NCBI GenBank assembly: GCA_044892505.1
Contig: CM097882.1
Coordinates: 363,320,001-363,384,000 of the forward strand
Direction: 5' to 3'
Length of the DNA stretch: 64,000 nt
Source of the DNA: Schmidtea nova
Taxonomy: Eukaryota
Part shown: piece after piece, positions 18,358 to 60,592 of the stretch
How positions within the stretch are numbered: position 1 is the stretch's first letter
Layout of the letters: every line of letters starts with the position of its first letter
Notes under the pieces: generated by a model
The model's input: the letters and a program-made list of their open reading frames with translations, nothing else
Database searches by the model: none
What the model was told of the DNA's origin: nothing
Program-made: the position numbers and the translations under genes

Positions 18358-21300
18358 TAATAAATAAGTATTCGATTTCAGTAGTTTTGATATACATAAC
18401 AATTTATAGAAACGGAACTAAACGTTAAGCAAAAGATGGAGGAATAAATTTCATTTTTATATGGTACTTAAACATAAAATAATTCAAGAAATCCAAACTC
18501 AATTTTTATTTTGGATATTAAAATGATTAACATAAATTATAGTTTAGTATTTTCTATTAATTTAATTTAATTTTAAAATCTTACTTTCCAATAAAAAAAA
18601 TGCACAATCTTGTAATTCCATTTCTAATGCCCTCACCAATGGAAATTTAGATGATCCTTCCAGTAAATGTAAAATAATAGGCTAAAAAATAAAAAAAATA
18701 ATAATAAAATTTTAATTTATAAATAAAAACGCTTTAAATAAGTAATTAATTTGTATATATTTTAAGTCACCAGAAAGAGAATTTAATATGAAATTAAAAA
18801 TTTATAAATTTGTCAAATGTATTTTATAAAGTTTGATATTTTTCTTTTTACAGACAAAATATTAGTGATTTTATTTTCAAAAAATAAACTTTCGACAGAG
18901 CCATTTTCAACACTAAAATATTGATCAAAATTAATTTATATTTGGATTTTATCATTAATATATGGTTGATATATGAAAATCCATTGTTAATGGTACAGTA
19001 TATTTTGTAGACAAAACTATTTTTATTGTATTTTCAATAAAAAAATTATTTTACGAAAGCAATAACCAAAATATTAAGTGATAAACAAGAAATGATTATA
19101 GGGGTCATTGCATGATTACGTCCCGCTCAAGGGTGGGTGAGTGTTTTCCTTGAAAACGTGACGTCACCTCTAGTTGTATTTTATAATGGACCGGTTAGAC
19201 CAAAAGAGTTCTAATTGCAACAATCTTCCTCTGCTACAGTGATGCTGATATTTTGAATGGACAACTATGACTAACAAAGCTGCTACATCAAGCTCCCTGC
19301 ATAGCAGGCTAGAGGACAGATTAATACAATGTATCATATTTTTAAACATTTTAAAACTGATCTTGCTTAAGCATTTTAAATGAAGTGCTCGAAATAATTT
19401 TAAAATACATAAGTTCATTATACTTGTTGTTTGAATCATTAAATTTTTTTAATCTGTTTCAACTGTCCGTAAATTTCTATTTTGAATGGATTATGGTACC
19501 ACTAGGCTATCCCCATTTCATGAAAAATAAAATGACGTCAAGATTGGGGGGTGCGTGGGTCTAGGGAAATGTGACCAAGAGTGACAGGGCGGGTGGGTGG
19601 GTCAAAATGGTCATTTTTGGCGTGACGTAATTATGTAATGACCCCATGTAAGTAATAAAAATTATTTTATAAATCAATGAAATCTTGATAAGGTTGAAAT
19701 AAAGTTATATCAAGACAGTAGGGGAAGTTAACCCCCAAAGTTTACATAATAACTTCATGTATTATGCAATATCTATAATTACTTATTGATTACGTAATCA
19801 ATCACATAGCATTTTATAACGTAACTGACAATGTAATTAACTTGTTATTAAATATTATGTGATGTAATAATTAGGATGCATTGATGGAAAACCTTCTGTA
19901 ATTAGTTTTTTTCGATGAGGTAAACTGTCTTTAGTGGAACTATTGATTCACAATTCTTTTTAAATACTTTTCTGAGTTTTGACGACTTAAGATGTTTAGC
20001 AGTAAAATTTAATAGCATGATTGATGTCAAACATGTCAAGCATGATTTCAACTTTGTTTACAAACATAGCTCTTTTTTGTTGAAAACATCAGTTTAAACT
20101 CTTAAGTTATGAGGACATTTCTGAGTAAAAAAGTAAAGAAAAATATACCCATGTGAAATTTGAGATGCGTTGATTAGGAAATGGTGATTATAGGGATATG
20201 CTTATACAACAAGAATATTAATAACTGTGGCATCTCTAGGATTTTTGAAAACAACTAGAAATTGAACAATCAGGTTACGAGTTCGATGGAATCCGCTTTG
20301 ATGAAACAAATTTTGAGTTATAAAAATAACTGTAACACCTTTATGCCTAACTATTTTCGTAAATAAATTATTAAAGTCTTTTTCTATGATCACTTCCTGT
20401 TATAAATCATCAATAATGGTTATATTCCATTGTTGTAATCTAGATGACCAATTTTTATCAAAACCCTTTATCGTTTTCATTTTAATCTTACAAAATTGAT
20501 TTTGAGTCATTTCATACTCATCATCAGCTACACTATGCCAACAAATCTTGTTAAATTTTGACTTGAACATTTTTGAAAAATATTAATTATAAATAACACT
20601 ATAAAAAGAATTATAAAAAAATAATATTAAATAAAATAATAGGATATTATCGGTTTTAAAATAGCGCTTAAAATTTAAATATTTTCTTTATTTAAACAAA
20701 TTTCAAAATGGCTGTAAAATTTAAAAACATTTGGTGCCAAAAATTTTAAAATTAAAACAAAATAGCCTTGAAATTGATTATGTAAAAACTTTATCATCAA
20801 TTACACAATAATGTCATAATTATATTCGTGAAAAAAGGCCAAGAAATGTTACATATTAATTCGAAAATTGTTAGTTTTATGTGAAATGTGATTATTACAT
20901 AACGGTTTGCGAGACCACGTGTGCTATGTAAAATCAGAGTGATCACGTAACATATATACGGGAGTGTAATGTACAGAAAAGTTGGGCAATTTTGTTAACA
21001 ATTTTGTTATTTTTATATTTTGTTGTCAACGCCGTCGTTATTATGGTCGGTACCCTCGCGGTCACCGAGGACCCCCCTTTTGTGTTTTGCTTGCAAGCAA
21101 ATAATTATTTTTTATAATTTTAATTCGAAATTTGAATTTGGCTTACTATGGCAAATGCTATAGTAAGCCAAATTGACAAAGAAATAAAAATCGATATTTT
21201 AAATGGTATAAAAAATTGTATGCAAACCAAAGAAAACTGCATCTTTCACTTATTTTCGAGGCTATTCTAATTAAGCAAATAAATCAAACGATTTCGAATT

Positions 21301-24300: not shown

Positions 24301-27300
24301 AAAGTTTTAAATATCTGTTGAATATTCGAACTAAAGTACAATCTAATTTAAATAAACTATTGAATAAATGTGTCAATTTATTTAAATAAATAAAAGAACA
24401 CCATTTTTTAAAATATATTTATTATTATAGTATAAAATGGTGATTCTTTGGTAGCAGTATTAAGAATTAAATAATTATTTTAAAATATTTATATAAACAC
24501 CTCACATCCCCTTTTTTGAAAATCTTTCATCTTTTCTATATTTCTTATTATGATTTTGTCTTCTTGATTTTCTAACAAATAGCCTCTTTCGTCAATTTTC
24601 TTTATTATTCTATATGGACCTTCAAATCTTTCTTAGTCTTTATTTCGAATCTCACGCTTTCTTAATACAGTATCTCCTATATTACATTTTCTTATTGTCT
24701 TGATCTCTGCCGCGTTTGTTACTTCCGTCTCTTTGCTCTTTATCTTTCTTTCTTATATGTATTGAAGTACTGCTATACCATTTTGATCTGTTAATTCTCC
24801 TTCCAAAAACGAATTCTGCCGGACTTACCCCAATTGTTTTCTGTATTGTCGCATTTAAGGTATATTCAATTTCCAGTAATATCTCTGCCATACTTTCCTT
24901 GCTTTGTTCTTCTAATGACGCGTTAATATAATCTCTTTGATTGTTCCAAACTTTTTTTCTATTAATCAATTGGTGTTATTTTGATATGGGCTTGAAAACA
25001 CTATTTCGATTCCTGTTGACTTTGCCAATTCTTTTAAACCGTTTGATTCAAAACATTTCCCAGTCTACTGCAGTTTTTTTGGTGCTCCAAATCTTAATAT
25101 CCATTTGTTTAGAAAATTTTTCAATATTGTTTTTTCATCTTGTTTAGCTATTGCAGACAGAGAAATGTATTTACTGTAATGGTCAATGATTCAACATATG
25201 CATCTTTCTCTATTGATTGTTTCTTTCATTGGTTCACGTATATCCATATAGATCAGCGGTCTCAAACACGCGGACCGCGACGTTGTCTTTTGCGGCCCGA
25301 AACGAAGCAAATGGATTTTGTAATTTAACCAAACTTATATAACAATTAAATTTTAATTTTAAATTTTAATTTTTCTAATAACATTAATTTAGAATTTTAA
25401 TGTAAGGCGGCAGCATAATGATTTCTAGAATGTTAAAATAAAATCTAAAAATTCATAACTTTAGAAGAAAAGCGTTAAAAAAAATTTTAAGTTTTCCTTT
25501 CTTTACTACTAGATTTATGTGTTTTAATCATTGTAAAAAGATTTTAAGTAGTAAGGCCCCTGAGGTTATGCTTAGTAACATTTCCATTATTAGTCATAAT
25601 ATAAGACGTTATTTCCAAAATTATATTCTATTTAAAACTGTAATATTTAAACAAATATTAATCTAAATATTGTCACTTGCTTTTAGTCACACACGGCCCG
25701 CGTTATACTTTGAGTTTAAGATCCCTGATATAGATCATCTCAAATGGTTCCGTTCTTATGGTTGTTTTAGTTTCTTCTTTTGTCTTTATTGTTAGTGTCT
25801 TCGTTTTCTGATACGCAATACAGTTTTCAATTACTGATATTACTTCTTTTACCAAATCTTCCATGTAAAAATTTCGTTGGATATAGTTTTTTATTTTTTG
25901 TGTTCTTGAATGCGTCTCCTTGATCATATTTCGCCTTTTCGATTTTGGTATTCATATTTTTCATCTCTTTTATGATGAATCTTCCGTTCTTGAACTTTTC
26001 TATTTCATTCTTTATATCTTTTCTATCATCATTATTGTTTTGCCACTTATTAACGCTATCTTCCGTTGTTACTGTTAATAACCTTGTTTTTACTCTTCCG
26101 CTTTCCTGTTCATCATGTTCCATCATGTATTGCATGCATGTTGCGCACGTTTTCTTTGACAGGATATCCACATTTCCATGATTAATGCCTTTCCTATATT
26201 CCATCTTTATATCCAGGCTGTTTAAATGATTGATCCAAGTTTGAAATTGTGATGTAATTGGCTTCGTCTTTGTCAACATAAAGGTAATAACCTTATAATC
26301 TGTTCGCAATAAAATCATTTTCATATAAATAATGATTAAAATGTTTTCAGAAGTAATATATTTCCAGTAATTCTTTTCTTGTTATGGGGTAGCTTTTTTC
26401 ATGGCTACTCATTGCATGAGATCCGTAAGCAATAACGCGTTCATGTCCAAAATCATCCTTTTGATAATTGTCGGTGATTTATATATTCCTCTATTGAAAT
26501 ATGTTTGGATTAATAAATATGAACCGGATAAAATAGTACAAATAGTAGCGGATAATCATATGTATTTACCTATTTCAACCTAATGTATAAACAATATACA
26601 AATTAAAATTCGTGACGGTAATGGAAAATTTATGAATTTTTCAAAATATTAAAAATCACCTTTGACACTACATTCCCATATTTTGTATGGAAGCAGTATT
26701 GTTGAGTTTTGTCTAAACAAGCATGAAATATAATAAAAAGCACAAAAACAAGGAGCAAATCAATAAAAATACGAAGATTCAAAAATTAATAATTAGAGTA
26801 CAAATTTAATAAAAAATTTAATATTTAAAATTTGGCGGGAGAAACTAGTATAGGTGAATGATAAGTCAAATCCAAATATAATAATATAATATAATAATAT
26901 AATAATCTATTAATAATCTAAATAATTAATCTAATTTTATTTCAAAAATTTTAAGAAATAAAATTAATTAAAATATTAATTATTTAATATAAAACCTGAG
27001 CTATTGGGAAACCCGAGCCAATGGAAAACCTGAGTAGTATAGAAACCCGAGTCATCAACAAAGTTGTCTAATAACCATGGAAAATTTGATGATTTAAAAG
27101 AAGCGCGGGTGAAAAACAAGTAACCTATTTACTCCAACAAAATTAATTATTAAAAAACCCGGGGGAAAAAGGAAACTCCGAGTGATAAGGTAAACCTGAA
27201 TCTAAGATGACTTAATTAGTTTTATTTAGATAAGATACCGAAGACTGTGAAATATCATCAGTCAATTTATTCAATTTTGCGTACAAGAAAGAGCATTTCC

Positions 27301-29829
27301 CATTAGGACATTTACTACAGCGCAGTGATAATGCAGACGAAAAGTGTAAATTATTGTGCAAGATCAAATAAAAGTTATTGTGTTGGGTGATCTGATTAAT
27401 TTTAAATAAAAAGAACAAGGAGTAGGATATTATTACTGACTTATTACTGATATTAAACCCAATAGTATAATATCAAAATTGAGAGAAGAAACAATACATA
27501 TATATACAAGGAAAATATTAAAACTATTTTTAAATTATGATACTAAATTAATGATACTAAATTCACATGTTTTAATTAAATTTGATATGAAACTTCTGAA
27601 GAGAATAAAACCTCAATTAAAGGGTAAAATCTTTAACCGTGTGTTCATTATTACAGCTCGATTTCAAGGATCAACCGAAATTTACTCCCATCATTATTTT
27701 CTAAAGTTGCAATACTAAAATAACAATTAGAAGATGCAAAATTAATGATCAATCGAGTTTGTGTTGAAACATCGGTATTAACTGGATATGAAATCGGACT
27801 TTATATGAAACATGCAATTTATCCTATGAAAACCAAGGAAATTGAACAGTTACTGTTTGGTCAGGAAGTATCATCATTCTACAAAAACAAATATCTAGAG
27901 ATAGAATAATGCCTTAATTTATTCTTGTACTTTTTCAAAGTGAAAAACCTTACAGTGGTTCATATACAACTTCGTGTTCAAAATTAAATCATTTTAATGC
28001 TATTTCATTATCTTTATCAAAACATACTATGTATACTCATGATTTCAAAAATAATAATTTCTGTGCTACACATATGCAAAGTATAGTAAGGAATATGGGG
28101 TATTGAGATCGAAACCTGAATTATTGTATAACTCTTGCAAAACGTCAGATTTCGATTTGAATCAAACTAAATTACTACAGAACGATTATCAAGTTTTTTA
28201 AAACTGTTGAAAATCCAGCGCATAGAATAATATATTGAGCTTTTGAAAATAAAATACGGATAACTTCTATTATCCAGCTCTATTAGTTAGTAAACTGCAA
28301 ACAATATTATTGATCCTGTACATTATTATTCTAAAAAATGTAGAAACCGTTTATTGCATTTTAAGCTCAAATTTAGGGATGAAATATGATAATTTTTCTT
28401 TAATATCTCGGACAAATTCTTTCTCGGCTGTAGTAATAATAACTGTGTCCCTTTTCCGTCATACTTTTCATTAGAGAATCAGTTAAGTCTCTTCCTGCTA
28501 AATCAATTTTATCAATAACATAAGGAAAAGTAATTCCTTCATATATAAGAACTGTATAAGTTACATCGGAATCTACAAAATATCAGTTGTTCTTCAGAAA
28601 CATTGAAAGACAACACAGCTTGAATAGAAACATAGATAGTTGACGCATTGACCGTTAGAAACATAATTCGAGTCATTTTTTCTGTTGGAATTTAGACTGA
28701 TTGGAGTTTCAGTCAATGACATTGTGTGTTCTTCAAGAACGACTCTCAATTCACTGTAGAAAGAATTGTGCCATATCCTTTCTATATCATCCCAAATGGT
28801 AACGATTACGTGTTCTATTGAATATTTCAAAATAAAAATACCACTCGTCAATTGAGCTTAATTAATGGCATTGTTGACTTTCTGTCACGTACCAACTTTA
28901 ACACATTGATGACGAAGTCAATAAACGATAGAAAGGAACATGACCCATAGAGCATCATCTCCAGTAAAACCAGCTTTGCATTTCCAATAAGTAAAGCGGA
29001 AACATCTTCATCTGCCAATTTATTCAAAATCTTGAGAGGTCAATAAAACCCGACGTTCACATGTAACCTTCATATGTGCAAATCAAAAATACACAAATGC
29101 GAATTGACCACAATAACTAAACCAATTGTATATAATAAACATTTAATTATTTAAAATGTCAAGACTAATTATTATGTCACACTAGGGGTTCTTTATCTGA
29201 CGTGACATCCTACTACTGTTAACAATAAAAAAAATTACATGGGAACATCAGATGTGCTCAAATGCCCAAACTTGTCCTGGAACTTTCCGGTCTCAACAGC
29301 TCTCTTAGTTTAAATTATATTCATTAAATTATTATTCACATATTTTATCACTAACGAGTTTTATGAGTCTCAAGACATTAATATAACTACTATTTAAAAC
29401 TTTTTATTAATTTTAATAACTTTTCTTATAAATCTTGGTCAATTATTTGCTTACATGATAAAATAAAATAGATGTAATATAATTTATAAGTACAAATTAA
29501 ATATGAAAAGAATTTTTAATTAAAAATATAATTAGTAAATTTTTTTAAATTGAGGCTAAAGATATCGAAAATAACAATATTTGTATAAAATTTACAAAAA
29601 ATTCAGTAAAATATTATTAATAACAATATTTCTAATCAGCTTATTACCTGGTCTTTACCATATATCTCGCCATTTAAAATATATCTTATCAAAAATATTG
29701 ATGCTGGATGCGCGGCTCCTGATAATACGATTTTCAGCGGCTAAATAAATCTCCATTAGTAACTTTTTATCTCCATAATGATAATATGCAATAAATTACC
29801 CTTTTAGGATCAGCTACAAAATTGTTCAT
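4924..29829 (-). CDS. MDH1: Cytosolic malate dehydrogenase (MDH1)-like protein, divergent; 6 exons: 29800-29829, 29648-29740, 18585-18681, 15353-15651, 10434-10727, 4924-5130; 339 aa
   Basis: Exons found by eye translate to [10 protein letters not shown] / [18 protein letters not shown] / [15 protein letters not shown] / ..[14 protein letters not shown] / LAAELGV..IIWGNHS..WNGT / TDWINM..FFSFPV..; all five introns are GT..AG and phases match (0,0,1,0,0); no internal stops. Confidence 0.88.
5673..6936 (-). mobile_element. Mariner (DD34D) transposon in MDH1-like intron 5
   Basis: About 30-bp TIRs CGTGGTGCGC..AATAAGT.GTGAGACTAA, TA target duplication at 5671-72 and 6937-38. Confidence 0.93.
5766..6779 (-). 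pseudogene. Mariner transposase, frameshifted
   Basis: [11 protein letters not shown] start, FVPRFL (WVPHEL-like), [23 protein letters not shown]; split over several frames. Confidence 0.9.
8915..9109. mobile_element. hAT-type MITE
   Basis: TIRs CAATGGCGTAGCTAGGG / CCCTAGCCACGCCTCTG; 8-bp flanks TGCCATAA / TGTCATAA (7 of 8 match). Confidence 0.75.
10434..10727 (-). CDS. MDH1: MDH1-like exon 5 (catalytic His motif WGNHS)
   Basis: [29 protein letters not shown]; TAG acceptor, GTAAGT donor. Confidence 0.9.
10960..11960 (+). repeat. Dispersed repeat family, copy 2, with internal GAATAATCTGAA minisatellite
   Basis: Palindrome at 11243-11280; distal block CACCCCGAGTGTCCC..GACTCTCTCGGG shared with about 21625-21680; contains an N gap. 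Confidence 0.75.
13590..13890 (-). mobile_element. Degraded mariner transposase fragment
   Basis: [24 protein letters not shown] resembles [23 protein letters not shown] of the 5.7-6.9 kb element. Confidence 0.55.
13950..14760 (-). mobile_element. Possible Gypsy integrase remnant
   Basis: Weak degenerate matches (EYVLLFG, LLAFREK, GPY/F-like KDHLR..RWYKY) amid many stops. Confidence 0.3.
14880..15240. repeat. Two-copy tandem duplication, period about 217 bp
   Basis: GATCTTAAAAAGA(C/T)CCTGATCA(A/C)TCCAAT(G/A)CGAAATTCTTT occurs near 14939 and 15156. Confidence 0.7.
15353..15651 (-). CDS. MDH1: MDH1-like exon 4
   Basis: Contains [31 protein letters not shown]; CTAG acceptor, CAG|GTTTAA donor. 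Confidence 0.9.
17517..17805. mobile_element. hAT (Charlie-like) MITE in MDH1-like intron 3
   Basis: TIRs CAGGAGTGGGCAAAC / GTTTGCCCATCCCTG; perfect 8-bp TSD CTCTAAAA. Confidence 0.9.
18308..18355. repeat. (TA)n microsatellite
   Basis: Pure TA run. Confidence 0.95.
18585..18681 (-). CDS. MDH1: MDH1-like exon 3
   Basis: [32 protein letters not shown]; TAG acceptor, GTAAGA donor, phase 1. Confidence 0.88.
19101..19645. mobile_element. Non-autonomous TIR element (PIF/Harbinger-like)
   Basis: 22-bp TIRs GGGGTCATTGCATGATTACGTC / GACGTAATTATGTAATGACCCC; TSD not clean. Confidence 0.65.
20190..20580 (-). pseudogene. Maverick packaging ATPase fragment in MDH1-like intron 2
   Basis: [36 protein letters not shown], homologous to 43.9-44.25 kb. 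Confidence 0.85.
21020..21720 (+). repeat. Dispersed repeat family, copy 3
   Basis: Palindrome 21136-21173 is the exact reverse complement of 312-349; distal block shared with copy 2. Confidence 0.8.
23190..23970 (+). pseudogene. Decayed ORF of unknown origin (about 260 codons)
   Basis: Less AT-rich than its flanks; one frame reads as protein-like with scattered stops (..[34 protein letters not shown]..). Confidence 0.3.
24113..24376 (-). mobile_element. Possible Penelope-like retroelement ORF N-terminal remnant
   Basis: [31 protein letters not shown] resembles the PLE N-terminal FL..C..P.F..K pattern; flanked by short direct repeats. Confidence 0.4.
24540..26465 (-). mobile_element. Gypsy LTR-retrotransposon remnant (RNase H to integrase)
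   Basis: [68 protein letters not shown]. Confidence 0.85.
25254..25727. mobile_element. hAT MITE nested in the Gypsy integrase remnant
   Basis: TIRs CAGCGGTCTCAAAC / GTTTAAGATCCCTG; perfect 8-bp TSD ATATAGAT. Confidence 0.88.
26466..28305 (+). mobile_element. Heavily deleted Maverick remnant (penton, major capsid and protease fragments)
   Basis: 26466-26680 [26 protein letters not shown] (penton); 27722-28190 [21 protein letters not shown] (MCP); about 28265-28305 [13 protein letters not shown] (protease); same order as in the intact copy. Confidence 0.8.
28310..29018 (-). pseudogene. Actin pseudogene (about the N-terminal 240 codons, no introns seen)
   Basis: (L)[68 protein letters not shown]; frameshifts, stops and ATG changed to TTG. 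Confidence 0.9.
29648..29740 (-). CDS. MDH1: MDH1-like exon 2 (Rossmann beta-A/alpha-B)
   Basis: [31 protein letters not shown] resembles MDH1 [31 protein letters not shown]; TAG acceptor, CAG|GT donor. Confidence 0.85.
29800..29829 (-). CDS. MDH1: MDH1-like exon 1 ([10 protein letters not shown])
   Basis: ATG, 10 codons, then GTAATT donor and a 59-nt intron ending TTTAG in phase 0 with exon 2; short exon, so less certain. Confidence 0.6.
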
Positions 29830-32430: not shown

Positions 32431-33491
32431 CACAATATTCTGTGTCTCGGAACACTCTCCTTCTAAATTTGATATGTATCTTCCATTCGTATTGTGATGT
32501 GGTTGTTGTTCGGCGAGCATGTCAGAGTGTGTGTGTGGCTTTCTGGGATAAAACTTGCGGTCAAATAAAAGATTAGATTATCAATAATATTTTAATTATC
32601 AGAGATTTAAAGGATCGATATTTATGTGGGCAATTAAATAAGTTTCAATCGAATACATTTCCCAGACTGAAAACTTACGAAATTGAAGTAGCGAAATTAG
32701 AAACCTTTGACTAAGAAGTGTTCTATGAGAAAGAGAGTGAAAATAATGAAATTAATCAATCTATATGTCAAAGTCTAAACGAATTATTTGGAAAGAAATT
32801 CATGCTTAACTCAAATGATTCTTAGTCAAGAAAAAGCGAGGAAGTAACAAATTTTAATCAAACAATCATTTATCAAACCATTCCAAAATCTTTTGTCGAG
32901 GAAATTCGAAAAATGGATAATTTTGTATCAACTTCGAAAAAGAAAAAAATGTTATAGAACTTCTGATGAAATTTCTATATTACTTCCCCGATCAAAGTTA
33001 TCGTCCTTATTATCAAACAACTTCAACAATACATCACCAATGTTAATATTAAATAATGAAGTAGAAACTATTCAAAAAGCGAATCAAAATATTTACGTAA
33101 AACAAATTATCAATCCGAATATTTTTCATTAATTTCAAAAAATCAAAATTTATCAAATATTCCTCTAGCTTCATTTCAAAGTCTTTCTGATAATGAAAGT
33201 TACATGGATGATAATTACGGACAAAAGTGTCAATAATCTCAGTCATACCCCGGCCTACCAAAAGTCTCCAGTTAGGCAGTTATTTACGTATTGCAGTTTA
33301 TAATGAACGTCTGCAGTGCAAATATGAACAGCAAGGGAAACAAAGGTCACAAACACCTTCAACATTCTGCATGCACACATGTACACACACGCACGCACTC
33401 ACACACGTACAGACACACACAGAATATGACTACTCACACCAGACACACAACAGTGAGTCGTGTTAATGAAGGATTGTCATTTTCTTAGAAT

Positions 33492-33945
33492 ATGGCTACT
33501 CGTAGAGATCTTACAGACTTTCAGAAAGACATTATTTACGTATGTTTCCTTTGCGGAAAAAGTCAGAGTGAAACTGCTGCATTGACTGGCCATTCCAAAG
33601 GAACTACTAACTATTTCCTGAGGAAGTACCGACAGGAGCAGACACATGTCAACAAGCAACGTTCAAGCCGCCCTAAACTTCTGAGCATCCATACACAATG
33701 GCAGCTGAAACGACTGTGGTTAGTGTCCATATTTAACACTGGCCCTGTACATGCCAACATTTCCACCATTCGTTGCGCATTACATTTTCATGGTTCATAT
33801 GTCAGATACTGCGCAAGGAAGCCTTTGATTACAGAAAAAATTCGTCGTCGTCTCTTGAAGTGGTGCCAAGAGAGAAGGAGTTGGACAGCAGAACAATGGT
33901 GCTAAGTCATTTGAGTAGGAGGATGTGTGCACACTGGAGACAAAG
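33492..33945 (+). pseudogene. Tc1-like transposase 5' fragment (paired/HTH region)
   Basis: MATRRDLTDFQK..SQSETAALTG..RPKLLS..RKPLIT..RRLLKWCQERRSWTAEQW; truncated before the DDE core. Confidence 0.8.
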
Positions 33946-33949
33946 AAAA

Positions 33950-34640
33950 TGAGTCATAACAAATTTTTATGACTCATCACGATGACTCATCGATGACGTC
34001 ATCGATGACTTATTTCAAATTTGAATTTTATGATGTCATCGATGACTCATTTCAAATTCAAATTTTAAATTTGAATTTCCAAAGGTCAAAAAAGATCAAA
34101 CCTTCAAACAAGGGTACCATTCAAAAGGTCTTAGAGAGGTCTATACAATGATCATAACCTCGAAGGTTTATGGAGGGTCCTGAACCTTCAAGGGGTCTAA
34201 AACCTTAAAAAATATTTAAACCTTACAAGTTATATATCATTCGAAAGGTAATTGAAAGGTGAGTATGACGGTTAAACCCTCAAAGGTCCATGGTGGTTGG
34301 TCGACCCTCAAAGAGTTCAAAACCTTCAAAAATATTTAAACCTTACAAATTATATATCATTCGAAAGATAATCGAAAGGTAAGTACTATAGTTAAACCCT
34401 CGAAGGTTTATGGTGTGTTATTGACCTTCAAGGGGTGTCCAAACTTAAATGTTTTTAAAACCTTACAAGTTATATATCATTCAAAAGGACTTTTGATAGT
34501 GAGTTTGAAGGTCATACCCTTAAAGAATTCAAGTTTCAAAAATTTTAAAACTTCATAATATACATATCAAACAAAAGGTATTTGAGATGTAAGTATCTTG
34601 GTCATACTTTCAAATGTTAAAGGTGGGTGCTAAACCTTCA
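33950..34640. repeat. Maverick subterminal repeat block (TGASTCA cluster plus about 120-bp units)
   Basis: Units containing TCATTCGAAAGGT..AACCTTC recur near 34099, 34237, 34357 and 34477; one homologous unit at 53510-53680. Confidence 0.75.
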
Positions 34641-35559: not shown

Positions 35560-36869
35560 CACAAATTAATCATTGAAATCTGCATCGTTGAGCTCCGGCA
35601 GCATTTCTTCTAGAGTATCGGTGTCGTCAAGATCTACAACTGGTGTCATGTCCTCTAAAATGGCCATATGCGTAACTTTTATTTTTACCTACCCAATTCC
35701 GTTTATCGTCTGCATTAGTTAACGCTCTTTTGTTATGTCTATGCTCTACAGTTGATGATTTTTATTAGCTATACGAAAAGGGCACTGTGTATATTTTATT
35801 TGTGCTAAAACAATCTAGGTGAGATTCATGCGTTAAACCACTATCTGGCAATGTGATACCTTTAGCTTTTAATATGTCATCTTTGCCTTTCATACTGTAG
35901 CATTTAGGTCTTAAAAATATCCACTTATCATAACCAAATCCTTTGCTCTCGTCCTTAAACTTTCCTATCACAGAGTCAAGGTTCCTATTGTAAAATGGGT
36001 CTGTTGGTTCATAATTTGATGTGTCTAGCAAATTATCTCGAATCATAGCTGGTAATAGATTGACCAATTTACAATTTTTGATTTCCAAGAAAAAGGAATC
36101 GGTGTCCCCAGCAATAATATTGATTTGGCAATCAAATTCGTCTCGATATTTTTGCAAATCAATATATTGCGGCTGATACATTCGTAGTTTGGACAGATCT
36201 AGTACTGTTTGACCAATGTAACTAGGTCTGTCCAAACACACCTAGTCCTTTCTAAGCAAAACAGAAATTAAATCGTCATCTATTTTTGTGCTCCGTCTGA
36301 ATGATGCCAACAACCAATTTGATTAATTAAATTTGAATTATTTAAAGTTTGGCTTTTTGAATTTTGATTAATTAAATTTTGATTAATAGAATTATCTTTT
36401 ATCGAAAAAGAATTAATTATTAGAGGCATTAATTCCTCTTCGTCATCAAAAATTGTAATAATTTCTGTTTTAATAATTTTAGGTGAATTAATATTAATAT
36501 TGTTATTACTTTTTCTTTTATTAGATGATTTATTATTATTAGATGTGTTATTTGGTATATAAGATGAGTTATTATTATTAGATGAACTATTAGTTATTAT
36601 GGTATTATTTAGTTTATTAATAACTGTGTTTTTATTTTGTAATGTTGATTGTTGTATTATTTTAAAAAGATTATTTTTCGATGTCATGAATTGTGTTAAG
36701 TGATTATAATGTTTATCATAAAACTCTTTATATGTTGTTGTCTCAGCTATTTTACATGTGGGACAAATAAAAAACATCACACGGTTGTAGATATTTTTTT
36801 AGTATGTTTCCATAACTACGCGGCAGTCGTTATGTAACGTACTAATGCAGTAATTTGTTTACAAATTAC
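35560..36869 (-). pseudogene. pPolB copy A, internally deleted
   Basis: N-terminal HNDC..CPTC/Asn-rich part joins directly to the C-terminal DRPSY..AGDTDS..FLRPKCY..KAKG part near 36310. Confidence 0.9.
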
Positions 36870-37409
36870 CTATAATAATTAAAAATGCATAAATAATTTT
36901 CAAAATCATATATTAATTATTTATAAAAAATATGACTATTAAATATCAAAATAATCAATATTTATATTAATCAAATATTAAATTAATAAAAACTATCATT
37001 TAACCTATTAAGTAATATTTTAATAAGCGTAACATATTAAATTATTAAGTAATATATTAAAATATTAACAAAAGAATAATAAAAACCTATAAGAACATAT
37101 TAATTACCTATAAAAAATATTAGATACTTATAATAANNNNNNNNNNNNNNNNNNNNNNNNNNNNNNNNNNNNNNNNNNNNNNNNNNNNNNNNNNNNNNNN
37201 NNNNNNNNNNNNNNNNNNNNNNNNNNNNNNNNNNNNNNNNNNNNNNNNNNNNNNNNNNNNNNNNNNNNNNNNNNNNNNNNNNNNNTTATTATTAACTATA
37301 ATATATTTATTACTTATATTCAAAATAAATATTATTATACAAAGCATGATTATTATTATATAAAAGAATACGATAAATTAAAAACTTTAAAAATAAAATA
37401 AAAACATAC

Positions 37410-37990
37410 ATTCGCTTCCTTTAGAAACATTAATCATATCATTCGGAGCAAAATTTGCAGCTTTATAATTTGAAGCGGCAGCTTTATAATTTGAAGAGGT
37501 AGCTTTAAAATTGGAAATCTGCAGCAAAATATGCCGCAAAATCATTAAAAAGTCCTGCTGCAAAACAGGTATTATTGAAAGCTACGGCATTATTTACATC
37601 AAAATTGGAAGCTGTATCAGAATAATTATTTCTTGCTAAAATCATAAATTTAAATAACAATAAATAAATAAATAATTTTACCGTTGATTTCAGAGATATT
37701 TGCGACATTAAAGTTATTGAAATTAATTGGATCGACATTTAATCTTGCTAAACCAATAAATAAATAAAGTTACTTAAATAAATTAATTTACCATTTATTT
37801 CCGATTCATTAAATTTTCTTTGGCCTGCATTATTTTTATTATTATTTGCAATATTATTATTATTATTTGCAATATTAATTCCTAAATTCAAAATAAATAA
37901 AAAATATGAATAAAAATTAATAATAAATTTACTATTTACTCCATAGAATTTTCCAGCGACACGTCGTTGATTATTAATATTTGTATTCAT
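37410..37990 (-). CDS. Four-exon Asn-rich micro-exon unit, copy A (37933-37990, 37792-37881, 37682-37747, and 37635 to either 37505 or 37410)
   Basis: Three GT-AG introns of 51, 44 and 46 nt, all phase 1, give a continuous frame; TAA at 37505, or continuation to a T|GTATGT donor at 37410 with a 1-nt frameshift. Confidence 0.65.
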
Positions 37991-38109
37991 ATTTGAAAAT
38001 TGATTTAAAATTGATTTAAAATTTCTGTTGAATTATTGAGATTAAAAGTGACGAAAACATGAAAGTATAGTGTATATAAAGTAAAATAATTTCAAGTTTT
38101 ATTAACCAT

Positions 38110-38121
38110 CCAATCAGATTC
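38110..38121 (-). promoter_or_regulatory. CCAAT-box motif CCAATCAGATTC
   Basis: Identical 12-mer also at 50075-50086 (reversed), 54302-54313 and 60720-60731, each about 60-130 bp upstream of an ATG. Confidence 0.6.
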
Positions 38122-38947: not shown

Positions 38948-39324
38948 TTATAACATAGATTTAAGCCATGCAAGGCAATGTTGACCACAAGTAGTCGAGA
39001 ACGGATGTTGATAACGAATTCTATTATATACAATCGGTTTACCGATAGTCTACAATTTACTGACTAATAAATTTGGATAATATTATCCAAATGGATAAAA
39101 TACATGTATTCGATCCGGTTTCATGAAAACAGCAATCCAATGTTCACCGCCCAAAGAAGATATCTGAGTATTTACAATGATGGCTTGATTAATATCCAAA
39201 TACGGAATTTTATCTAGTGGATAAACTCCAATAAATTGATTTCCCAATAGTTTTTTACCAAGTCTATATACCTGAACAGAACTAATTTAATTAATTATTT
39301 TAAATAGTATAAAACTTACTCCAT
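38948..39324 (-). pseudogene. Adenain-like cysteine protease, copy A (intron 39282-39319)
   Basis: ATGGA|GTAAGT..TAG|T; GEHWIA and CGQHC motifs; two stops and FDP changed to FYP. Confidence 0.88.
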
Positions 39325-48300: not shown

Positions 48301-49671
48301 TATCTATATAACTACTGCCGCTTAGCCTACTTATCTCAGAAAATTTTGTAAGGACAAAACTTATATATTCTATTTTGGAGATTGTCCAGTTGCTCCCCTT
48401 TTCATTAATTTGTATAATTTTCTCATTTAAATTAGTGATACCTTCTTCAATAAAGGTATCACTCCACTCTCTGGCAGAATTTGAGATTACAAAAGATTGT
48501 AATTCATCATCCTTCTCAAATTCCACCTTGAGACAAAATTGAATTTTGCATGATTTTAATTTATATATATATATGAATTTAATTTTTCTAATAATATATC
48601 CGGTACAGAGACCGTTTTAATATTAAATTTAATACATCCATTTTAATGATTACATGGGTATCGTTCAAGTCGGAATTAACTTCAACAATACCCATACCAA
48701 TTTGATTATTATTTATAATATTATTAATTTGAGAAAATTCATCATCATTGACGATGGTTATTTCATCATCATCATCAATGATGGATATAATATCTATATT
48801 GCTACTTTTATTATAAATATTAACATCTTCATNNNNNNNNNNNNNNNNNNNNNNNNNNNNNNNNNNNNNNNNNNNNNNNNNNNNNNNNNNNNNNNNNNNN
48901 NNNNNNNNNNNNNNNNNNNNNNNNNNNNNNNNNNNNNNNNNNNNNNNNNNNNNNNNNNNNNNNNNNNNNNNNNNNNNNNNNNNNNNNNNNNNNNNNNNNN
49001 NNNNNNNNNNNNNNNNNNNNNNNNNNNNNNNNNNNNNNNNNNNNNNNNNNNNNNNNNNNNNNNNNNNNNNNNNNNNNNNNNNNNNNNNNNNNNNNNNNNN
49101 NNNNNNNNNNNNNNNNNNACTGATGTCGATTATGATTATTTTTTTAGGAACTGAATCCATTATTGTAGTGTTTTTTCGTTTATTATTTTGTAAATTATTA
49201 TTTAGATTAGTTGTAGTATTTTGTAAATTATTATTATTAATATTTAGATTAGTTGTATTATTTTGTAAATTATTATTTAGATTAGTTGTATTATTTTGTA
49301 AATTATTATTATTATTATTTAGATTAGTTTTATTATTTTGAAAATTATTATTTAGATTATTTGTATTAGGAATATTTGATAAATTATTATTTAGATTATT
49401 TGTATTATTATTATTATTATTATTATTATTGTTGGTATTAGAAATATAATTTTTATATAAAGAATTAAAAAGTGATTTTTTCGACGGCATATACTGTGAA
49501 AGATGTGACCTATGAAAGATAAAAAATTCCTTATACGATTTCACCTCAATAACTTTACATTTTGGGCAGAGGAGGTGGGTGACACCATTATATTTATAGG
49601 AATAGTACTTTTCCATAATGACATGACAATCATTATGAAAACTACTATAAAAAAAATTTGATAAATTGAGC
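45367..49671 (-). pseudogene. pPolB copy B, full length but frameshifted
   Basis: CPKC, NQIGMG, VIYADFE, DHDH..CSECN, KGIFPY, DINNFYGWAL, WETDS (dead motif C), FLRPKCY; contains an N gap. Confidence 0.92.
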
Positions 49672-49869
49672 CTGAATGTAATGAAAAAAATTAAAATCAA
49701 AGGCTACAATTAAAAAAAAAATAAAAAATTAATCTTTAACTTAATAGATAATTTCATAAAAAATAACCTTTTTTTAATTGAAGTATTTATATTTAAAATA
49801 ATAGGTAATTGTTTAAAAAAAACATTTACATATTATATTAAATATAAACTTTTAATATTTATTCATAAT

Positions 49870-50150
49870 AATCAAAGTTCTGGGGGGAGGGGGTCTTTGT
49901 TCTTTTTTCCACCTACGCAATGAGTCATAATGTCTTTGTTCCCGGCTCCACACATCTACCTACTTAAGCCTTTGTTGATTTCATATTATTGTGTGACTCA
50001 TGATTGCAACAAAGATGCAAAAGAAATGCATGATTCTGATTGGTTCAGTGAATAAAGACATGTTATGCATACTTGAATCTGATTGGTTGATTGTGTGTTT
50101 CATTTTCTTGGTATATATACAATGAACATTTCACAATAATTTATAATTTA
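49870..50150 (+). promoter_or_regulatory. Putative promoter with TGASTCA sites, reverse CCAAT boxes and TATA
   Basis: TGAGTCA near 49921, TGACTCA near 49994, CTGATTGG near 50036 and 50079, TATATATAC near 50112, ATG at 50153. Confidence 0.5.
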
Positions 50151-50152
50151 CA

Positions 50153-50810
50153 ATGTGTCTTAAAGCAACGTTAGTGAAATATGGTAAAGTTTCAAATTTT
50201 TTCATTTTTCATTTTTATACAATTTATTTTTAGATAAATTGATGGCCGTACTGTTCGGCAAAATGGAGGAGATGTTTCCAAGCCTGATGTCAAAATTGAT
50301 ATATGCTGCTACAGAGATGCTCGTAATCAAAATACTATCAATCACCGGGATTGATATCAATAAAATATTGTTGGACCACCTGGCCAACTTGGACATGAAT
50401 CTTCCATACATGGCGGAACACATCATTTGTGCCTACCAATGCGGGCCGGGCACTGTACAGAAAAAATTGAAAAATACCGCATTTGGGTATTGAGAAAGGT
50501 TCTCAAAAATTTCGTGATGGAGTCTCGTAAAGAAAAAGAAGAAACCGAAGAGAAAGAAGAATGGCCAAACTGCATTCCCGATGAATCGATGGATTGCATC
50601 AAGCCAAATACTACAGATTCTCCGGCTCATTCTCCTTCAGAATGCTCAACTCTCGATGGGCCATATCTGCTGGAAGGCGATCAGTTGCAACATTGTGATC
50701 AATCGCCAGAATGCAATTAATCGCCAGAATGCAATCAATTTCCAGAATTCAATCAATTGCCAGAATCGCCAGAATCTCCCAATTGCGATGCATGTCATCG
50801 TAAAGTTGAT
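50153..50810 (+). CDS. Unknown spliced accessory gene (exon 50153-50183, 50-nt intron, ORF to 50493; possible frameshifted continuation to about 50810)
   Basis: TATG|GTAAAG..TTTAG|AT phase-1 intron joins in frame to ORF 50239-50493; an overlapping frame has an acidic/Pro region and 18-bp CAATCGCCAGAATGCAAT-type repeats. Confidence 0.45.
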
Positions 50811-51789: not shown

Positions 51790-53800
51790 ATGTTATTTTA
51801 TAAAGGTTATTTAATAAATGTTAGTAATATACATATTAGTTTTTGATTGTTCTATTTTTTATAAGGTTTTTATAAAATTTTCATAAGTTATATAAGTTNN
51901 NNNNNNNNNNNNNNNNNNNNNNNNNNNNNNNNNNNNNNNNNNNNNNNNNNNNNNNNNNNNNNNNNNNNNNNNNNNNNNNNNNNNNNNNNNNNNNNNNNNN
52001 NNNNNNNNNNNNNNNNNNNNNNNNNNNNNNNNNNNNNNNNNNNNNNCAATAAGAAACTTTGCGATTTCTTAGGAATTAAGTGTAGACAATAGATTTCATT
52101 CTAAATCTTGTTTTAAAGAAACCGGATTTTCGAGGCTAAAGGGAATTCTAATTGATTACTGATTGTTTTTCATAAAATTTACTTTAAAATTAAAAACTTC
52201 TTGATGATTTTCTTAATTTGAGCACTTGGATATTTTCGTCAAAAGCTGAAATTTTGTTATCTGTTTTAATTAAAAATTTCAAAATTATTTAATAACTGAT
52301 AATGTTGCATTCATTTTTTAAAAAAAATAAAATTTAATATATAAATAAGTCTATATCATTTTTTTGAATTTCAACTTGAACTTCGTTGATAATTAATATG
52401 AATTAATAATTTAATTAATAATTTTTAATATTTGAAAAAATTATTTCATTTAATTATACTGAATATTTTGCATTCTTTTTGTTTAAACATATTTTTAAAT
52501 ATTTATCATTTCAATGTTATTTTTTTATAATTATNNNNNNNNNNNNNNNNNNNNNNNNNNNNNNNNNNNNNNNNNNNNNNNNNNNNNNNNNNNNNNNNNN
52601 NNNNNNNNNNNNNNNNNNNNNNNNNNNNNNNNNNNNNNNNNNNNNNNNNNNNNNNNNNNNNNNNNNNNNNNNNNNNNNNNNNNNNNNNNNNNNNNNNNNN
52701 NNNNNNNNNNNNNNNNNNNNNNNNNNNNNNNNNNNNNNNNNNNNNNNNNNNNNNNNNNNNNNNNNNNNNNNNNNNNNNNNNNNNNNNNNNNNNNNNNNNN
52801 NNNNNNNNNNNNNNNNNNNNNNNNNNNNNNNNNNNNNNNNNNNNNNNNNNNNNNNNNNNNNNNNNNNNNNNNNNNNNNNNNNNNNNNNNNNNNNNNNNNN
52901 NNNNNNNNNNNNNNNNNNNNNNNNNNNNNNNNNNNNNNNNNNNNNNNNNNNNNNNNNNNNNNNNNNNNNNNNNNNNNNNNNTAATTGCTCTTAAAGAGAA
53001 AATAATAAAAAAAATTAATCAATGCTCCCTGAGAGCAGTAAATTAATAATAACAATAATAAATTGATATTCAATTATTAACATAAATAAATTCACAAAAA
53101 ATTGACAATAACAACATTCCACAAATTAAATCAGATTTCTACATAATTTTCACAAAATAAATGTAATAAAATAATAATTAAGTTATCAAAATAAATATCA
53201 AAATCTTATTTTTCATTTTTTACATCAGATAAAGATCGTTATGGTTAAATATTCCCATAAGTTAAACAAATGAATAAAAACAAAAAAAATAAAATATACA
53301 ATTATTGTAATTTAACACAGAAAAAATTTCTTAATCGATACACAGACATCAACCCTTGATGTATAAGGATCAACCCTTAGTAGGCAGTTATGTGCCCTCT
53401 GACTCATCGTTATTACGTAATTATTACGTAATTTATTACATAACAAAGGAATATTAGGTAATCGATGCCCCCCCACCCCCACCCCCCCCTTTTTTTTTTA
53501 CACACAGACGATGAGTCATAAAAATTTAAATTTGAATTTTCAAAGGTCAAATAAGGTCAAACCTTCAAACAAGGGTATCATTCGAAAGGTCTTGGAGAGG
53601 TCTATCCAATGGTCATACCTTCGAAGGTGTATGGAGGGTCCTTAACCTTGAAAGGGTCAAAAACCTTTTCAAAAATTCAAAAACATAAAAAACATAAAAT
53701 TTTAAAAACATTTTTTTTTTTTTCAAAAACACAAAGTGAGAATTAATCAACATTTATTAATAAATACACATATATATATATGACAACAATGTTATTCCAA

Positions 53801-59533: not shown

Positions 59534-60123
59534 CTGAATTAAAATACAATAATAAAAATATTTATCAAAATATTTTAAAATAACAATTATTTTATTCTAT
59601 TACTAAACTAATATTGAATTNNNNNNNNNNNNNNNNNNNNNNNNNNNNNNNNNNNNNNNNNNNNNNNNNNNNNNNNNNNNNNNNNNNNNNNNNNNNNNNN
59701 NNNNNNNNNNNNNNNNNNNNNNNNNNNNNNNNNNNNNNNNNNNNNNNNNNNNNNNNNNNNNNNNNNNNNNNNNNNNNNNNNNNNNNNNNNNNNNNNNNNN
59801 NNNNNNNNNNNNNNNNNNNNNNNNNNNNNNNNNNNNNNNNNNNNNNNNNNNNNNNNNNNNNNNNNNNNNNNNNNNNNNNNNNNNNNNNNNNNNNNNNNNN
59901 NNNNNNNNNNNNNNNNNNNNNNNNNNNNNNNNNNNNNNNNNNNNNNNNNNNNNNNNNNNNNNNNNNNNNNNNNNNNNNNNNNNNNNNNNNNNNNNNNNNN
60001 NNNNNNNNNNNNNNNNNNNNNNNNNNNNNNTTACTAATAAGATATCTTAAATTTAAATTATAAAAACATTAACACTTAATAAAAACTTAAAATTTAATAA
60101 AAATTTATATAAATAAATAAAAA

Positions 60124-60592
60124 TTACTTACATTTTTGTCTACCATTAAATCGCTCATCAAACACATCATTGATTTCTGCTCCATTTTCATATTTATTTT
60201 CTACATTTTCTTGCTTATTTACAAGATTATTTTCTTCATTTTGGTGATTATTTTCTGCTATAAAATTAATTGTAAATTAATAAAGAAAATATCAAATATG
60301 AAATTATTACCATCTATATCCACATTTAGTTTCTCATTTCGACTTGCAGCATAGAACTGATTTGAGAATTCGACATTTCTAACTAAATTGTAAATAATAA
60401 TAATTTATTATTTTTAATAATTTAAAATTTTTTACCATTTGCATTTTTATTTTCGATCATAGGGACGTTGACGACATTCATTGTAGAATTAAAGTTAACT
60501 GAAAAATTATATATTAATCTAATTAATAAAATAGATTAAAAATTACCATTTTTCTTCATCATATTTTTGATATCTCTTGAAAGGTTCTCCAT
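60124..60592 (-). CDS. Four-exon Asn-rich micro-exon unit, copy C (60547-60592, 60436-60498, 60311-60382, and 60257 to either 60124 or 60132)
   Basis: Three phase-1 GT-AG introns of 48, 53 and 53 nt; continuous frame MENLSRDIK..FNGRQK; ends at TAA 60124 or at a T|GTAAGT donor at 60132. Confidence 0.7.

Follow-up and report, generated by a model that had tools for sequence, protein, structure and literature searches.

Adenovirus E2B, with its polymerase and preterminal protein, is a relative of pPolB, the large family-B polymerase of Polinton/Maverick elements, and it starts from a spliced upstream exon. That exon codes for about three residues and serves two genes. The E2 region, which encodes both proteins, is described in the accessible part of one source as giving rare E2B mRNAs (PMC7851563). 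Polinton/Maverick pPolB is itself said, in the accessible text of two studies, to carry extra domains at its N-terminus (PMC8502044; 10.1101/2024.03.18.585575), while excerpts of a third describe the core genes of a nematode Maverick as intronless (10.1101/2022.07.12.499685). Introns in Polinton-like elements are known already in two forms, introners and group I introns. As far as the available passages go, the former are transposon-derived insertions in dinoflagellate Maverick/Polinton-like proviruses, mostly gained after integration (PMC11957031), and the latter are self-splicing introns of 309-376 bp upstream of the capsid gene in cryptophyte PLVs (PMC12220804). No spliced pPolB leader is described in the portions of the literature covered by our search, including the accessible portions of PMC6431247, PMC8363768, 10.1101/2024.01.15.575659, 10.1101/2023.08.22.554363 and 10.64898/2026.10.13.758929; the Polinton/Maverick papers of 2006-2007 and Repbase, which stood outside its scope, may annotate exons. 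Judged from its sequence, what appears new at the locus described here is a pPolB leader of the spliced type, an unusual feature for genes described as intronless. This leader, upstream of a polymerase remnant that we name copy A, is very probably the beginning of a Polinton/Maverick pPolB gene that has decayed; a CCAAT/TATA-like promoter likely drives it, and the host spliceosome likely removes its introns.

A Polinton/Maverick cluster

The window, that is the whole stretch of 64 kb analysed here, belongs to an AT-rich eukaryotic assembly of 1.25 Gb, presumably from an invertebrate animal. Between about 35.6 and 64 kb it holds a Polinton/Maverick cluster: three related polymerase copies on the minus strand, A, B and C, are accompanied there by integrase, protease, capsid-like and ATPase-like frames (we assume the last two labels from gene order and sequence motifs), and nested as well as truncated Polinton copies are found in the window. 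The polymerase frame of copy C has 1367 aa. Its homologs, up to 62% identical, contain PF03175 (E 7e-28 in P0021), and the copy C polymerase itself gave no polymerase Pfam match; the remnants of the copy A polymerase are 58-68% identical to it. The integrase at 42051-43113 matches Pfam rve (E 1e-7) and has a chromodomain, and the adenovirus-type protease of copy C matches Peptidase_C5 (E 9e-6), with a 76% identical counterpart in copy A at 38951-39283. The candidate packaging ATPase and the major and minor capsid frames had no Pfam match.

The copy C polymerase further displays a weak match to Endonuclease_7 (HNH-type) over residues 691-724 and a variable linker with an NVDCVP/poly-Asn repeat, and family C is a recent large burst, 150 of 150 scored matches being 99-100% identical over 70 aa. 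Repeats of 120 nt past the 3' end of the polymerase, at 34086-34525 for copy A and 53547-53746 for copy C, are perhaps subterminal repeats. Two stretches outside the main cluster, 19995-20282 and 26446-28268, hold Polinton fragments that are older and decayed, with resemblance to the ATPase and to the minor and major capsid frames. On the plus strand, a 138-aa frame at 33489-33905 presumably resembles, by its motifs, the N-terminus of a Tc1/mariner transposase, and 50035-50800 holds a decayed frame behind the same CCAAT/TATA-like promoter with a candidate GT-AG intron of 50 nt (50184-50233); this second accessory gene may be spliced. In the region 49600-50030, copy B has kept the polymerase acceptor at 49672, with no leader exons upstream, and shows a frame change in a T run just past the acceptor, likewise seen in L147, L148 and L150.

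The copy A leader and its damage

A preliminary description of this DNA had read, upstream of the copy A polymerase, three phase-1 introns of 51, 44 and 46 nt between an ATG at 37990 and an acceptor at 36870, and all these features are present (Table 1). So are the ends SEIN plus G|GTAAA of exons 2 and 3, the starts TTTAG|CAAGA of exons 3 and 4, and the TAA of exon 4 (37507-37505), with the NYKAAAS repeat in another frame, ending T|GTATGT. The mini-introns are GT-AG and 86-92% AT. Upstream of the ATG stand a CCAAT-like box at 130 nt and a TATA-like box at 88 nt, and copy C is alike. Two defects were absent from that description: two TAA stops fall within the first 22 codons of the copy A polymerase exon, and about 2.65 kb are missing near 36309 by comparison with a 96%-identical sibling. 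Copy A cannot make the protein itself.

Table 1. Positions in the window of the copy A leader, of the copy C leader used for comparison and of the three pPolB copies
Feature	Position	Strand	Remarks
CCAAT-box-like motif AATCTGATTGG, inferred promoter	38110..38120	-	same motif and distance in copy C and in siblings
TATA-like motif	38071..38078	-	sequence motif
Leader exon 1 from ATG 37990	37933..37990	-	58 nt (64 nt in 28/29 siblings)
Mini-intron 1 (predicted)	37882..37932	-	51 nt, phase 1
Leader exon 2	37792..37881	-	90 nt, Asn-rich, ends SEIN
Mini-intron 2 (predicted)	37748..37791	-	44 nt, phase 1
Leader exon 3	37682..37747	-	66 nt, ends SEIN; possibly from duplication across an intron
Mini-intron 3 (predicted)	37636..37681	-	46 nt, phase 1
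Leader exon 4	37410..37635	-	226 nt, frameshifted, stop 37507-37505, NYKAAAS repeats
Long intron (predicted)	36870..37409	-	540 nt, splits Cys codon T|GT; N stretch inside
pPolB exon, 5' part	36310..36869	-	Cys/His domain and Asn-rich linker
pPolB 3' remnant past internal deletion	35651..36308	-	by sequence comparison
Copy C leader (comparison)	59534..60592	-	exons 60592-60547, 60498-60436, 60382-60311, 60257-60132
Copy C leader introns	within 59534..60592	-	48/53/53/598 nt, all phase 1, T|GC junction
pPolB copy A	36869-35651	-	remnant
pPolB copy B	49670-45493	-	
pPolB copy C	59531-55431	-	

A DNA search gave 43 matches, and 29 sibling loci were examined, across which all four leader introns align. 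Exon 4 has 225 nt in 26 of the 29 against 226 nt in the window, so that the frameshift, already noted in the preliminary description, is damage of the window copy. Exon 2 spans 66-105 nt among siblings, always a multiple of 3, which is partly an effect of AAT repeats. The GT/AG dinucleotides are intact at 237 of 240 places in 30 family-A copies. We rejected this within-family conservation as a proof of selection: splice sites are no less variable than intron interiors (0.65% and 0.51%) and the three codon positions vary alike (1.6, 1.6 and 2.0%), so that conservation here comes from recent copying. Contigs from four runs of a single study, of unlisted kind, cover mini-intron 1 at L003:200-605 without a joint; two of their loose ends resemble what we take to be a tagmentation adapter, and these runs therefore look like DNA libraries and speak neither for nor against splicing.

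Open leaders across the families of the genome

To gather loci, the N-terminal domain of each of the three copies served as a query and the flanks of the matches were taken in; 121 candidates were left once the window's own places and duplicates had been dropped. The promoter motif and a CPxC motif were found in 95 of the 121, the 26 without one being left unscored, and 90 copies were scored with an intron caller that ignores frame; its donor rule for the long intron was refined once after the first pass, so that the resulting count is not blind. In 76 of the 90 copies, spread over 14 leader groups, the leader is all phase 1 and stop-free, and in the remaining 14 it is not clean; the leader families being related, these counts are not independent. 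The intron phase read in copy A thus recurs in other genomic copies, with frames that are open in sister copies. Of 62 distinct internal exon lengths, 54 are divisible by 3, whereas mini-intron lengths spread over the three remainders (19/25/19).

This asymmetry speaks against another view, in which the leader is not spliced to pPolB, its exon chain arises by chance from AT-rich DNA, and a nearby Met is the start of the polymerase. To be sure, GT and AG sites are common in very AT-rich sequence, and an in-frame ATG lies within the long intron in 28 of 28 family-A copies. However, when the leaders of eight family representatives were dinucleotide-shuffled (sibling L042 standing for family A, since the window copy is frameshifted), an open spliced chain was obtained in 0 of 1000 shuffles for each of them, under loose and strict splice rules alike; shuffled AT-rich sequence, which the preliminary description had named as a possible source of phase-consistent chains, did not yield them. 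With exon letters shuffled and splice sites fixed, stop-free chains came in 0/5000 trials for A, C and D, and in 2-9/5000 for three G families.

A cysteine codon split by the predicted long intron

The codon at the long-intron junction reads Cys in 88 of 90 copies when spliced, and Gly in 88 of 90 when read unspliced. The junction that had been noticed in copy A as forming a Cys codon, and that would join the leader to pPolB, is therefore common to the family, and relatives keep the Cys. Among the first 70 of at least 120 polymerase homologs listed, the column supplied by the junction is occupied by Cys in five that begin with the Cys/His domain and in one where the domain is repeated; it comes just after Met in P0021, P0017, P0016, P0018 and P0030, and in six of six metagenome relatives placed in the domain alignment. 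Relatives from other assemblies encode this Cys directly, 2-7 residues past Met and without any tail, which provides independent support for splicing. A start at the long-intron ATG, an unspliced alternative that is possible in family A, would put Gly where the spliced reading has Cys, and an in-frame ATG upstream of the acceptor is absent in 62 of 62 non-A copies. A chance exon chain with a nearby start would thus lose a Cys that all six relatives keep, and we consider it highly improbable. The predicted introns run from GT to AG with a pyrimidine-rich 3' end, and their removal restores the conserved frame, as for introns of the U2 type.

In an alignment of 13 domains, C10, H15, C21, C38, H56 and H59 are invariant and all six metagenome rows have the first Cys. 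The pattern is that of a C-C-H-C set with a C2H2-like one behind it, and we predict that this N-terminal domain binds zinc. A model of its 73 residues, built from the 13-row alignment, reached pLDDT 78. Foldseek found no match to it at E<=0.001, with two C2H2 fingers at E 7-9, and VIA-align gave no clear structural match (best Z 3.0, rmsd 3.2, 61 aligned). A single-sequence fold of the first 310 residues of copy C was unusable (pLDDT 34). When the 70-aa N-terminal domain was searched in longer proteins none of seven candidates scored, and a scan of viral contigs found no relative.

Mini-introns and the leader peptide

Leaders have three mini-introns in families A, C and D, two in families E and F and in the G group, and four in family H. 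The latter, traced from a decayed capsid-like fragment of the window (27.4-28.3 kb), branches more deeply in the polymerase tree than any other family of this genome (pPolB 65% identical). In five of five H copies GT directly follows the ATG, and four phase-0 introns of 42-48 nt lie around three 60-nt exons, two of which are near-identical; the leader then closes with an exon of 112 nt, whose end is T|GTAAG, and an intron of 335 nt before AG|GC, giving Cys, the long T|GC intron being kept. As a consequence only the long intron is universal, and neither the number nor the phase of the mini-introns is. An H element also has, on the minus strand at L198:5401-5868, a frame that resembles TATA-binding protein (Pfam TBP, E 2e-18) and stands head to head with the ATPase-like gene; no match to this frame was found within the 64-kb window.

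The idea that splice geometry is conserved without a conserved peptide is not supported in that wording by this comparison, with two, three or four mini-introns, phase 0 in family H and a peptide that is partly conserved. Exon 1 of families A, E, F and G has a shared R-[VI]-A-G-G-x-N-like ending, present in part in D, and in the families inspected exon 2 begins [IV]N[IL][AS]NN and Lys closes the last exon, directly ahead of the split Cys. No exon-1 motif is recognisable in C or H. The lack of peptide similarity noticed between copies A and C is therefore true of copy C, an outlier, and wrong for most families. Pooled pairwise dN/dS for seven G-type representatives (ungapped, the pairs not being independent) is 0.33 in exon 1 and 0.48 in exon 2, as compared with 0.25 in the Cys/His domain, which together with the shared exon-1 motif places the leader tail under moderate constraint. 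It might then be asked whether the peptide has a function of its own, for instance in localisation or turnover or as a partner-binding motif in exon 1, the introns being mere passengers. The motif and the ratios point that way, but families C and H have no recognisable motif, the relatives lack a tail, their Met standing 2-7 residues ahead of the Cys, and the exon-4 peptides tested had no Pfam match; such a function seems unlikely to be the explanation.

Phase 1 in itself was also rejected as a proof of selection, as 41-62% of the G-/ATG-ending sites of the polymerase are in phase 1 anyway and family H uses phase 0; base composition, together with duplication that copies phase, makes special selection unnecessary. 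Leader and polymerase look mosaic in places (L119/L121 and L120 as compared with L042 and L151), family E combining an A-like promoter with a G-like Cys/His domain, and family F has a D-like promoter variant, yet its polymerase groups with G2.

Exon duplication

The preliminary description had suggested tandem exon duplication in copy A from the common ends and starts of its exons. What speaks for it is that, of 160 pairs of exon ends, the SEIN pair alone has 4 residues in common, all others sharing at most 2, and that the last 15 nt of the two SEIN exons match at 10 positions, which 7 of 262 background pairs reach. By contrast, the 36-nt flank score of the junction pair (-5 in the sibling, -9 in the window) lies within background (mean -13, sd 7, 95th percentile 0, n=262). 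In family H duplications are clear, with scores of 27 and 24 where the background reaches no more than 8. Exon duplication is plain in family H and in a metagenome relative, L216, and only suggestive in copy A. Similarity between introns inside elements is high only beside duplicated exons or through AT composition.

A more specific version, compatible with the spliced-leader reading that we prefer, is that exon 3 of family A arose from a tandem duplication spanning an intron, from the end of exon 2 through the intron to the start of the last exon, and is chimeric. It would account for an exon whose end is common with exon 2 and whose start is common with exon 4, and apart from the SEIN match and the clear duplications in H and L216 it is favoured by the position of family E, with two introns, as nearest to A in the leader tree (support 88/94), in a leader-only tree that is mostly unresolved. 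However, the flank score does not stand out from background, the pair was picked in hindsight, and A, C and D, neighbours in polymerase trees, share three mini-introns, so that the third may be inherited and older; its independent gain in A, C and D would be another possibility. On balance a chimeric origin of exon 3 has a slight edge.

Introns elsewhere in pPolB

A metagenome scan kept 75 loci, 41 of which were read for the upstream frame and 26 scanned for short introns. TATA, ATG and Cys follow within a few codons in L206, L207 and L214, with no intron, and the coding part of L211 has none. Three short introns lie past the Cys/His domain in L225 (with its near twin L209) and in L245. L216, whose 5' end is missing, has four in the linker, with two near-identical 66-nt exons, while L213 carries one pair at the start and another in the conserved core; L219 shares both core positions, where GT-AG inserts of 43-48 nt interrupt the polymerase alignment at the same two places. 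All 16 metagenome introns, which were hand-picked from candidates and are thus not a blind sample, are in phase 1, and their exons are free of stops. It thus appears that intron clusters were gained elsewhere in pPolB by related elements. The polymerase tree places the intron-bearing metagenome groups, the intron-free group and the families of this genome on branches of their own, each supported, an arrangement that fits repeated gain and would also be compatible with loss from an intron-rich ancestor.

Such a distribution invites the proposal that 5' intron clusters were selected for themselves, as a mimicry of host genes in which introns close to the transcript start boost expression or let the element escape the silencing of foreign DNA that lacks introns, and were gained independently several times in the clade. 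The position of the clusters, each of two to four short introns, does vary: they lie upstream of the Cys/His domain in this genome, downstream of it in L225/L209, L245 and probably L216, and both at the start and within the core in L213/L219. These groups are on separate branches, and L206, L207 and L214 have no such cluster. According to the available parts of two studies, introns work against the repression of transgenes by HUSH in human cells (PMC8770142) and Polintons are PIWI targets in a planarian (PMC8532177). Against this, some relatives within the clade have no introns, copy C has long, uninterrupted frames for the major capsid-like protein and the protease, and the tree would also be compatible with intron loss; we hold the proposal to be doubtful. 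Extended to the whole Polinton clade, with same-phase 5' clusters repeatedly gained, multiplied by duplication and kept as host mimicry, and with splicing obligatory for the metal-ligand Cys, it is equally speculative.

A probable spliced pPolB leader and its known counterparts

In the spliced-leader reading, host RNA polymerase II would start downstream of the TATA-like box and the spliceosome would take out the long intron along with the three mini-introns. This would yield a pPolB that carries, at its N-terminus, a low-complexity tail of about 150 residues, drawn from four short exons, ahead of a predicted zinc-binding domain whose first Cys ligand would be supplied by the last junction. 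The long phase-1 intron at K|C would be old, and obligatory since the conserved Cys is lost without it. The mini-introns, for their part, would lie in a weakly constrained tail, where exons of equal phase can be duplicated or lost without frame shift, and their number would therefore drift between 2, 3 and 4. They would persist as a long-resident element uses host-type gene architecture, and a benefit for expression is possible.

With Polinton core genes annotated as plain ORFs, the true start of pPolB would have been missed in this clade. The elements also offer a compact natural record of intron gain, with 0, 2, 3 or 4 mini-introns, three places in one gene and duplications of different ages, so that a single locus makes testable both the origin of introns by tandem duplication and the benefit that mobile DNA may draw from resembling a host gene. 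Dependence on splicing could further allow replication to be switched tissue by tissue, whether by the host or by the element.

By its gene content the cluster resembles Polinton/Maverick (adintovirus-like) elements, with a large family-B polymerase, an rve integrase with chromodomain, an adenovirus-type protease, and candidate capsid-like and ATPase-like frames in one block. It differs from the nematode Maverick, whose core genes are described as intronless, in that pPolB here has a predicted four-exon leader. Like the dinoflagellate proviruses with their introners, it would place spliceosomal introns inside a Polinton-like element, but its introns are short, AT-rich and of host type, clustered at the 5' end and carried by whole amplified families. 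The cryptophyte introns also reside in a Polinton-like element, whereas those described here are GT-AG, 40-55 nt long and in pPolB. Finally, in contrast with the minute upstream exon of adenovirus E2B, shared between two genes, the leaders of this genome would contribute 60-150 low-complexity residues, in 3-5 exons, to a single gene.
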